From an uncultured archaeon (GTDB lineage Archaea > Asgardarchaeota > Heimdallarchaeia > Heimdallarchaeales > Heimdallarchaeaceae), in NCBI GenBank assembly GCA_964534625.1, contig CAZHRF010000001.1, positions 32,001 through 96,000 on the forward strand: a stretch of DNA of 64,000 nucleotides. The letters are read 5' to 3'. The position numbers and the translations under genes were made by a program. The notes under the pieces were generated by a model. It was not told the origin of the DNA. It ran no database searches and saw only the letters and a list, made by a program, of their open reading frames with translations. The stretch's first letter is position 1. Each line of letters begins with the position of its first letter. Positions 24,844 through 24,954 of this stretch are shown in pieces.

Positions 24844-24954
24844 TTATTCGGGTTCTTCACTTTTTCCTATTTCATATGTGTGATAAAATAGTGTAAATAT
24901 AACTCCTAAAATCACCAATGCTATTACAATTGTTTTTATTACTGTAAAGTCCAT
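24844..24954 (-). CDS. 36-aa single-TM microprotein, OST4-like candidate (not in ORF track)
   Basis: MDFTVIKTIVIALVILGVIFTLFYHTYEIGKSEEPE*; BRE/TATA-like AAAAGAAAAGCTTATTAA upstream; fills the gap convergent with the 964-aa gene. Confidence 0.62.
   Translation of the reverse strand: MDFTVIKTIVIALVILGVIFTLFYHTYEIGKSEEPE

Follow-up and report, generated by a model that had tools for sequence, protein, structure and literature searches.

A stretch of 64,000 nucleotides from an uncultured archaeon of the Heimdallarchaeaceae, hereafter called the window, carries on its minus strand an open reading frame of 36 codons, whose product was put forward in a preliminary description as a candidate archaeal OST4. 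[quoted passage not shown] The features on which the answer depends are compiled in Table 1.

Table 1. Coordinates of the peptide gene, its parts and the proposed partners within the window
Feature	Position	Strand	Remarks
STT3/AglB catalytic oligosaccharyltransferase	116..2374	+	Pfam STT3 E 5e-46; sole copy found in the genome; proposed partner
OST3/OST6-family membrane protein, 141 aa	9293..9718	+	PF04756 over cut-off, E 9e-8
One-helix membrane microprotein gene, Ost4-like	24844..24954	-	36 aa, ATG to TAA
Polar tail, residues 26-36	24847..24879	-	net -3; acidic in most Asgard lineages
Y24-H25	24880..24885	-	register matches Y25-H26 of human and yeast Ost4
Hydrophobic helix core, residues 5-23	24886..24942	-	uncharged except Lys 7; inside AlphaFold2 helix 3-32
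TATA-like box TTATTAAT	24982..24989	-	35-37 nt before ATG in 24/24 family sequences
A-rich BRE-like element	24991..24997	-	immediately precedes the TATA box; -41 and -40 are A in 24/24

The reading frame is a conserved gene

Translation of the frame is identical to the peptide quoted in the preliminary description, and the frame is a genuine gene, which is conserved, is under purifying selection and has a conserved TATA box in front of it. Using the single peptide as a query, 23 of 24 relatives from the same family were matched over the full length with E 3e-5 or better, with one match per genome, the one genome lacking a match being 82% complete, and after profile searches the gene was found in 29 of the 30 genomes of this family. 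All 24 aligned family sequences start with ATG and are 35-36 aa long, codon position 3 is the most variable, and mean pS amounts to 0.65 as against a mean pN of 0.23, while the remaining five frames are interrupted by stops in 19-24 of these 24 sequences. Conservation in relatives and dN/dS had both been proposed as checks, and the latter gave a median of 0.32 over 83 unsaturated pairs. A chance ORF is ruled out by this conservation, by the uniform start and length, by the large excess of pS over pN and by the stopped alternative frames. Contrary to the expectation that gene callers would miss the frame, the exact 36-aa sequence is already a called protein in the NCBI and Logan protein sets, with relatives that are also called genes. 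The BRE/TATA-like upstream sequence noted earlier is likewise a shared feature, since the motif TTATTAA (24989-24983), starting 35 nt upstream of the ATG, recurs at 35-37 nt in every aligned family sequence and is preceded by an A-rich stretch. Judged from this upstream region, the gene is separately transcribed in its own family (f1 among the families numbered here) from a putative promoter of its own. No public RNA data set was listed as containing the sequence.

Architecture of the peptide

AlphaFold2 predicts a single helix over residues 3-32 with a mean pLDDT of 91.6, and Y24-H25 is present, in agreement with the one helix bearing YH at 24-25 that had been described. A Foldseek search with this one-helix model gave no match, a single helix carrying little information. 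Invariant residues in the aligned relatives include F20, L22 and H25, and within the order the His of the Y24-H25 pair is found in 27 of 27 sequences and the Tyr in 25 of 27. Residues 17-23 are uncharged, as are the same columns in the aligned relatives, and an equivalent of Gly15 is absent, none of the five sampled members of the own family having Gly at this place. The net charge is 0 over residues 1-8 and -3 over residues 26-36, so that the positive-inside rule does not predict an outside N-terminus and a cytoplasmic C-terminus. Of the polar tail with Pro reported earlier, the polar character stands; the Pro is private to this genome and occurs in no relative.

Family of one-helix peptides in Asgard archaea

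Profiles built by four rounds of iterative search within Asgard genomes place the peptide in a single-copy, one-helix family that is present in most of the Asgard families searched; the genomes that carry it have a eukaryote-like STT3 as well, and its full alignment comprises about 80 sequences. Besides the own family, this covers the rest of the order (16/16), the families f5, f6 and f7 of the class and, further afield, f10, f11, f14, f17 (19/19), f18, f20-f24 and f28, with one copy per genome; with the profile queries used, the family was not found in several Asgard families, such as f12, f19, f25 and f27. Its members are 32-50 aa long and contain a single hydrophobic helix with a near-invariant closing Tyr, usually followed by an acidic tail, and no N-terminal feature of Ost4 is conserved as well as this tail. 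In 39 of 50 members the distance of the conserved Tyr from the start is 24-26 residues, with the mode at 25 as in human and yeast. Retention of YH, another of the proposed checks, holds at the class level in part, as the His after the Tyr is present in all sampled members of f1-f4, f6, f17, f21 and f24 but is missing from f5, f11, f14 and a number of other families. A Gly located ten residues ahead of the Tyr (Gly15) is found in f11 (7/7), f14 (29/29) and part of f21/f24, and at the N-terminus other family members keep no more than M-I plus a polar residue, with the D4 and Q6 columns scoring negative. By this comparison the window's peptide appears as one of the more diverged members, having kept Y-H and lacking the Gly15 equivalent and one N-terminal residue.

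Two lineages show peculiarities of their own. In members from f24 (L150:4195-4347 (-), P0076 and P0077), a long and strongly basic tail replaces the acidic one; such a tail would favour placement of the C-terminus in the cytoplasm, the arrangement seen in eukaryotic Ost4. In f14 (L209-L237), many members have no ATG at the expected place and instead show TTG or longer hydrophobic N-terminal extensions; the start codons of many of them are uncertain. The start of L158 was imposed in one computation.

Comparison with eukaryotic Ost4

The peptide resembles eukaryotic Ost4 (PF10215; human 2LAT, 6S7O, 6S7T; yeast 1RKL, 6EZN, 6C26) in having about 36 residues and one helix, in the Tyr-His that closes this helix 24-26 residues from the start, and in the presence of STT3 and an OST3/6-family protein in the same genome, with weakly predicted binding to STT3. 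Charged substitutions over Ost4 positions 18-24 break the yeast subcomplex, and this critical segment (PMC7226087) is equally uncharged in the peptide. However, the peptide lacks the I-(S/T)-D-x-Q-L start, A11 and G15, is one residue shorter before the helix, and has an acidic tail where that of eukaryotic Ost4 contains Lys with a KKXX-type motif (PMC3687696). That the N-terminal motif is not conserved had been recognised at the outset, and M-I-(S/T)-D-x-Q-L is indeed absent from the peptide; D4, Q6 and A11 are not kept in the Asgard family as a whole.

Searches with sequences and profiles against databases did not retrieve Ost4. The gathering cut-off of PF10215, which is 25 bits in the genome search, is not reached by the peptide, and neither the peptide nor any of the 24 aligned members matches this model. 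The search of Asgard genomes with the Pfam Ost4 HMM that had been recommended returned no family member, with no match at member loci, whether in 301 genomes (E 0.01) or in 11 genomes (E 10); four PF10215 hits with E <0.01 in the phylum correspond to other reading frames or larger proteins, outside the peptide family. Falling below the cut-off and lacking both the N-terminal motif and Gly15, the peptide is outside PF10215. Four family profiles compared with PDB at E 10 did not retrieve Ost4, and searches of Pfam, NCBIfam and PDB with the peptide or the family gave nothing significant for any family. Weak top matches of the sequence and feature searches (E of at least 1 or Atlas score <0.8) were PsbT, Ycf12, AcrZ, MgtS-like proteins and DUF7859, which are similar in size and hydrophobicity, share no common motif and have partners from other organisms. 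Human OST4 and yeast Ost4 match each other with an E of only 0.067, which indicates that sequence searches are blunt at such peptide size. When scored alone against the eukaryotic Ost4 profile, the peptide lies at the median of ordinary membrane helices, with 45-48% of decoys scoring as high. The YH criterion by itself is weak, since YH at 24-26 also occurs in six further hydrophobic short ORF starts among 2070 of this genome; the resemblance first described was thus not sufficient alone.

At the level of the family, a relationship to Ost4 becomes visible. HHalign aligned the family profile with that of eukaryotic Ost4 without gaps and start on start, with a probability of 72-86% and with G15, Y25 and H26 in register, the E of 5e-6 to 3e-5 being pairwise and not a database E-value. 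None of these three residues varies within the eukaryotic alignment, which is narrow and comprises animals and Saccharomyces only. When columns were permuted with Y-H fixed, a score as high as that observed arose in 1% of 200 trials for columns 2-24 and in 4.5% for columns 8-24, which points to some signal shared by the family and Ost4 beyond Y-H. With Y-H left out, the Asgard profile does not separate individual eukaryotic Ost4 sequences from generic helices, as 10-48% of decoys score as high, and the poorest profile match to eukaryotes is that of the f1 members (HHalign 3%). In the ESM Atlas, the top three named clusters for family member L117 are Ost4 (0.87, 0.85 and 0.85), the best sharing 205 of 256 features, with 9 of the 10 best sharing the family; L117 was picked after scoring as the most Ost4-like member, and scores below the tool's 0.9 mark serve as a lead only. 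L120 and L151 are also among the members closest to Ost4. The same search with the window's own peptide did not return Ost4.

Given these results, kinship of the peptide family with Ost4 is likely, and the window's peptide is probably the Asgard counterpart of eukaryotic Ost4 by descent. The designation as a candidate archaeal OST4 is hence upheld by the family-level profile and by weak support from structure prediction, but not by the peptide alone, which shows no significant similarity to Ost4. In an unlikely alternative, the peptide would serve a different membrane complex (the Sec translocon, signal peptidase, an ATPase or a transporter, for instance) as an accessory subunit or regulator conserved in Asgard archaea, and its likeness to Ost4 would reflect convergence of short helices with a terminal aromatic residue. 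This would account for the lack of significant database matches, the chance ORF starts with YH, an acidic tail conserved better than the N-terminal Ost4 features and the families without His, but it sits poorly with Gly15 in register and N-terminal similarity beyond Y-H, with Ost4 ranking first in the Atlas for L117 and, weakly, with the predicted STT3 complex considered next.

Predicted association with STT3 and other oligosaccharyltransferase components

The STT3 encoded in the window matches human STT3A with E 2e-89, far above the solved PglB/AglB entries, and the OST3/6 family represents the other member of eukaryotic subcomplex II, so that genes for both are present here. The OST3/6-like protein is DC2/OSTC-sized and has no thioredoxin domain; thioredoxin-like parts match elsewhere in the genome. 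Ribophorin I is encoded on another contig, Ost5 and DAD gave sub-threshold hits only, located inside longer proteins, and OST48_N found no match in this 90% complete genome.

The complex of the peptide with the window's STT3, predicted by ESMFold2 as a score for the pair rather than an interface, scored 0.58 as compared to 0.00 for the best of three controls, one of which was an unrelated 677-residue protein (0.00); the controls are not specified as membrane helices. Between runs, at least 88% of contacts agree, and the partner pLDDT is at least 69. Of 80 solved complexes, 58 reach the mark applied, as do 2 of 110 mismatched pairs, and passes scoring 0.60 or under comprise 7 of the 80 solved complexes and both mismatches. 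Binding of the peptide to this STT3 is thus weakly predicted, and the score may reflect model memory of solved oligosaccharyltransferase complexes. A single-sequence AlphaFold2 model of STT3 (pLDDT 38) was left out of the analysis.

With fair confidence, the peptide can be regarded as an Ost4-like clamp that holds STT3 within an archaeal oligosaccharyltransferase of several subunits. By analogy with the eukaryotic enzyme, its helix would pack against the membrane domain of STT3 in the TM1/TM13 groove, its N-terminus lying outside and its Y-H on the cytoplasmic side, and the packed peptide would stabilise STT3 and help to hold the OST3/6-like subunit. The cell would thereby possess a multi-subunit N-glycosylation enzyme with a subcomplex II of eukaryote type. 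That the peptide shares a common ancestor with Ost4 but has lost STT3 binding in its own family, or has become dispensable to STT3, is very improbable: the missing Gly15 and the HHalign value of only 3% in f1 are what would be expected in such a case, but the gene is under purifying selection with F20, L22 and H25 invariant, and it is this same copy that gave the weak pass in complex prediction.

Several further observations concern STT3 and its surroundings. The idea that the charges of the peptide tail and of the STT3 loop before TM13 compensate each other was considered and rejected, as no covariation was seen; the loop is basic in 16 of 16 STT3 sequences (+2 to +10), including that of G105, whose peptide tail is basic. 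STT3 open frames reach 1140-1350 aa in several Asgard families (genomes of f14, f8, f19 and f25) as compared to 750 here, and thus include long additional domains. The gene directly after STT3, at 2670-3440 (+), encodes a protein with matches above the respective cut-offs to E3 UFM1-protein ligase 1 (E 1e-5) and to PCI domains, and a homologue adjoins the peptide gene in L053 and L054. At 11088-12110 (+), a 340-aa protein is encoded that has a hydrophobic stretch at its N-terminus, a domain of GIFT type and a membrane helix at its C-terminus; its gene is conserved about 6 kb or less from the peptide gene in f1, f11, f17 and f28. Its family matches PF09822, IFT52_GIFT with a best E of 7e-8 and, under the cut-off, OST48_N with a best E of 2e-5, and its best PDB match is IFT52, not OST48; it is a possible WBP1/OST48-like protein.

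Relation to earlier reports and implications

The preliminary description regarded OST4 as new for archaea and thus as a new eukaryotic signature protein. This does not hold, since Ost4 homologues have been reported in most Asgard classes by Eme et al. 2023 (PMC10307638). In the accessible parts of that paper and its supplements no Ost4 sequences or statistics are given, and the supplementary discussion names only OST5 and WBP1; the homologues reported there have a spread similar to that of the present family, the two being set side by side by description only. A later study of the translocon of one Lokiarchaeon has no mention of Ost4 (PMC11417166). The peptide is a further member of the Asgard Ost4-like proteins already claimed, the concept not being new, and what is gained is a testable reagent and a definition of the family.

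If the assignment is right, it provides concrete sequences for the least documented Asgard oligosaccharyltransferase subunit and completes a subcomplex II of eukaryote type (STT3, Ost4 and OST3/6) within one 25-kb stretch of a single genome, and it becomes directly testable whether a multi-subunit glycosylation enzyme existed before eukaryotes. It is rather unlikely that the family represents a true, sequence-defined archaeal ancestor of Ost4 distinct from the proteins behind the 2023 claim, if that claim was ever tied to sequences. Were this so, the lineage pattern, with Gly15 kept by some groups and His26 by others, both present in f21/f24 and acidic tails almost everywhere, would record the origin of Ost4, and the Asgard STT3-Ost4-OST3/6 core would predate eukaryotes.

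Gene neighbourhood

In the window, cdc6 (25164-26417) is the head-to-head neighbour of the peptide gene, and on the other side a 964-aa gene converges on it, the two stops being 1 base apart. The 964-aa protein (21948-24842 (+)) has no Pfam match, and its N-terminal signal-like stretch, C-terminal membrane helix and 28 N-x-S/T sequons make it likely to be a surface glycoprotein; its gene is convergent with the peptide gene in most genomes of the family. The block 16834-24954, which contains genes of 205, 269 and 448 aa, RFC, a TFB-like gene, the 964-aa gene and the peptide gene, is inverted relative to that in family relatives, where the peptide gene stands directly after RPA.

Recurring neighbours of the peptide gene are RPA, Lhr helicase, Elf1, a protein presumably of SWIM type (without a Pfam match), a 75-aa protein and EngB, and they vary by lineage. 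Lhr, RPA, Elf1 or EngB adjoin it in nine families (f1, f6, f7, f11, f17, f18, f20, f22 and f28), often co-oriented, which could be read as a sign that the peptide serves the DNA-handling proteins encoded nearby (Lhr helicase, RPA, the SWIM-type protein and Elf1) as a membrane anchor or small partner, its acidic tail binding a basic DNA-binding surface. This is improbable, since the neighbours change between lineages, with cdc6 and the 964-aa surface protein in their place here, the gene in f1 appears to have its own promoter, and adjacency is unspecific in a region that also holds STT3, OST3/6 and other housekeeping genes. Elsewhere, the neighbour is rpS3Ae in f5, unrelated genes are found in f3, and in f14 the peptide gene is often found after an rRNA/tRNA region and opposite a gene for a P-loop GTPase.

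An operon with oligosaccharyltransferase genes was never seen in the genomes examined. The distance between the peptide gene and STT3 is 22.5 kb here and about 4 kb in G004 and G007, the two single-contig genomes of the own family; it is about 20 kb in 15 genomes of f11, 22-88 kb in several others, 375 kb in G061 and >1 Mb in G217. In three close relatives, the OST3/6-like gene lies about 7 kb from the peptide gene. Linkage to STT3 is given little weight because RPA and other housekeeping genes are equally close and related genomes share gene order, and the proximity is compatible with a common housekeeping region. The small ORF at 26876-27064 (-) of the window is pilin-like and has a site resembling that of class III signal peptides (Pilin_N E 0.087).
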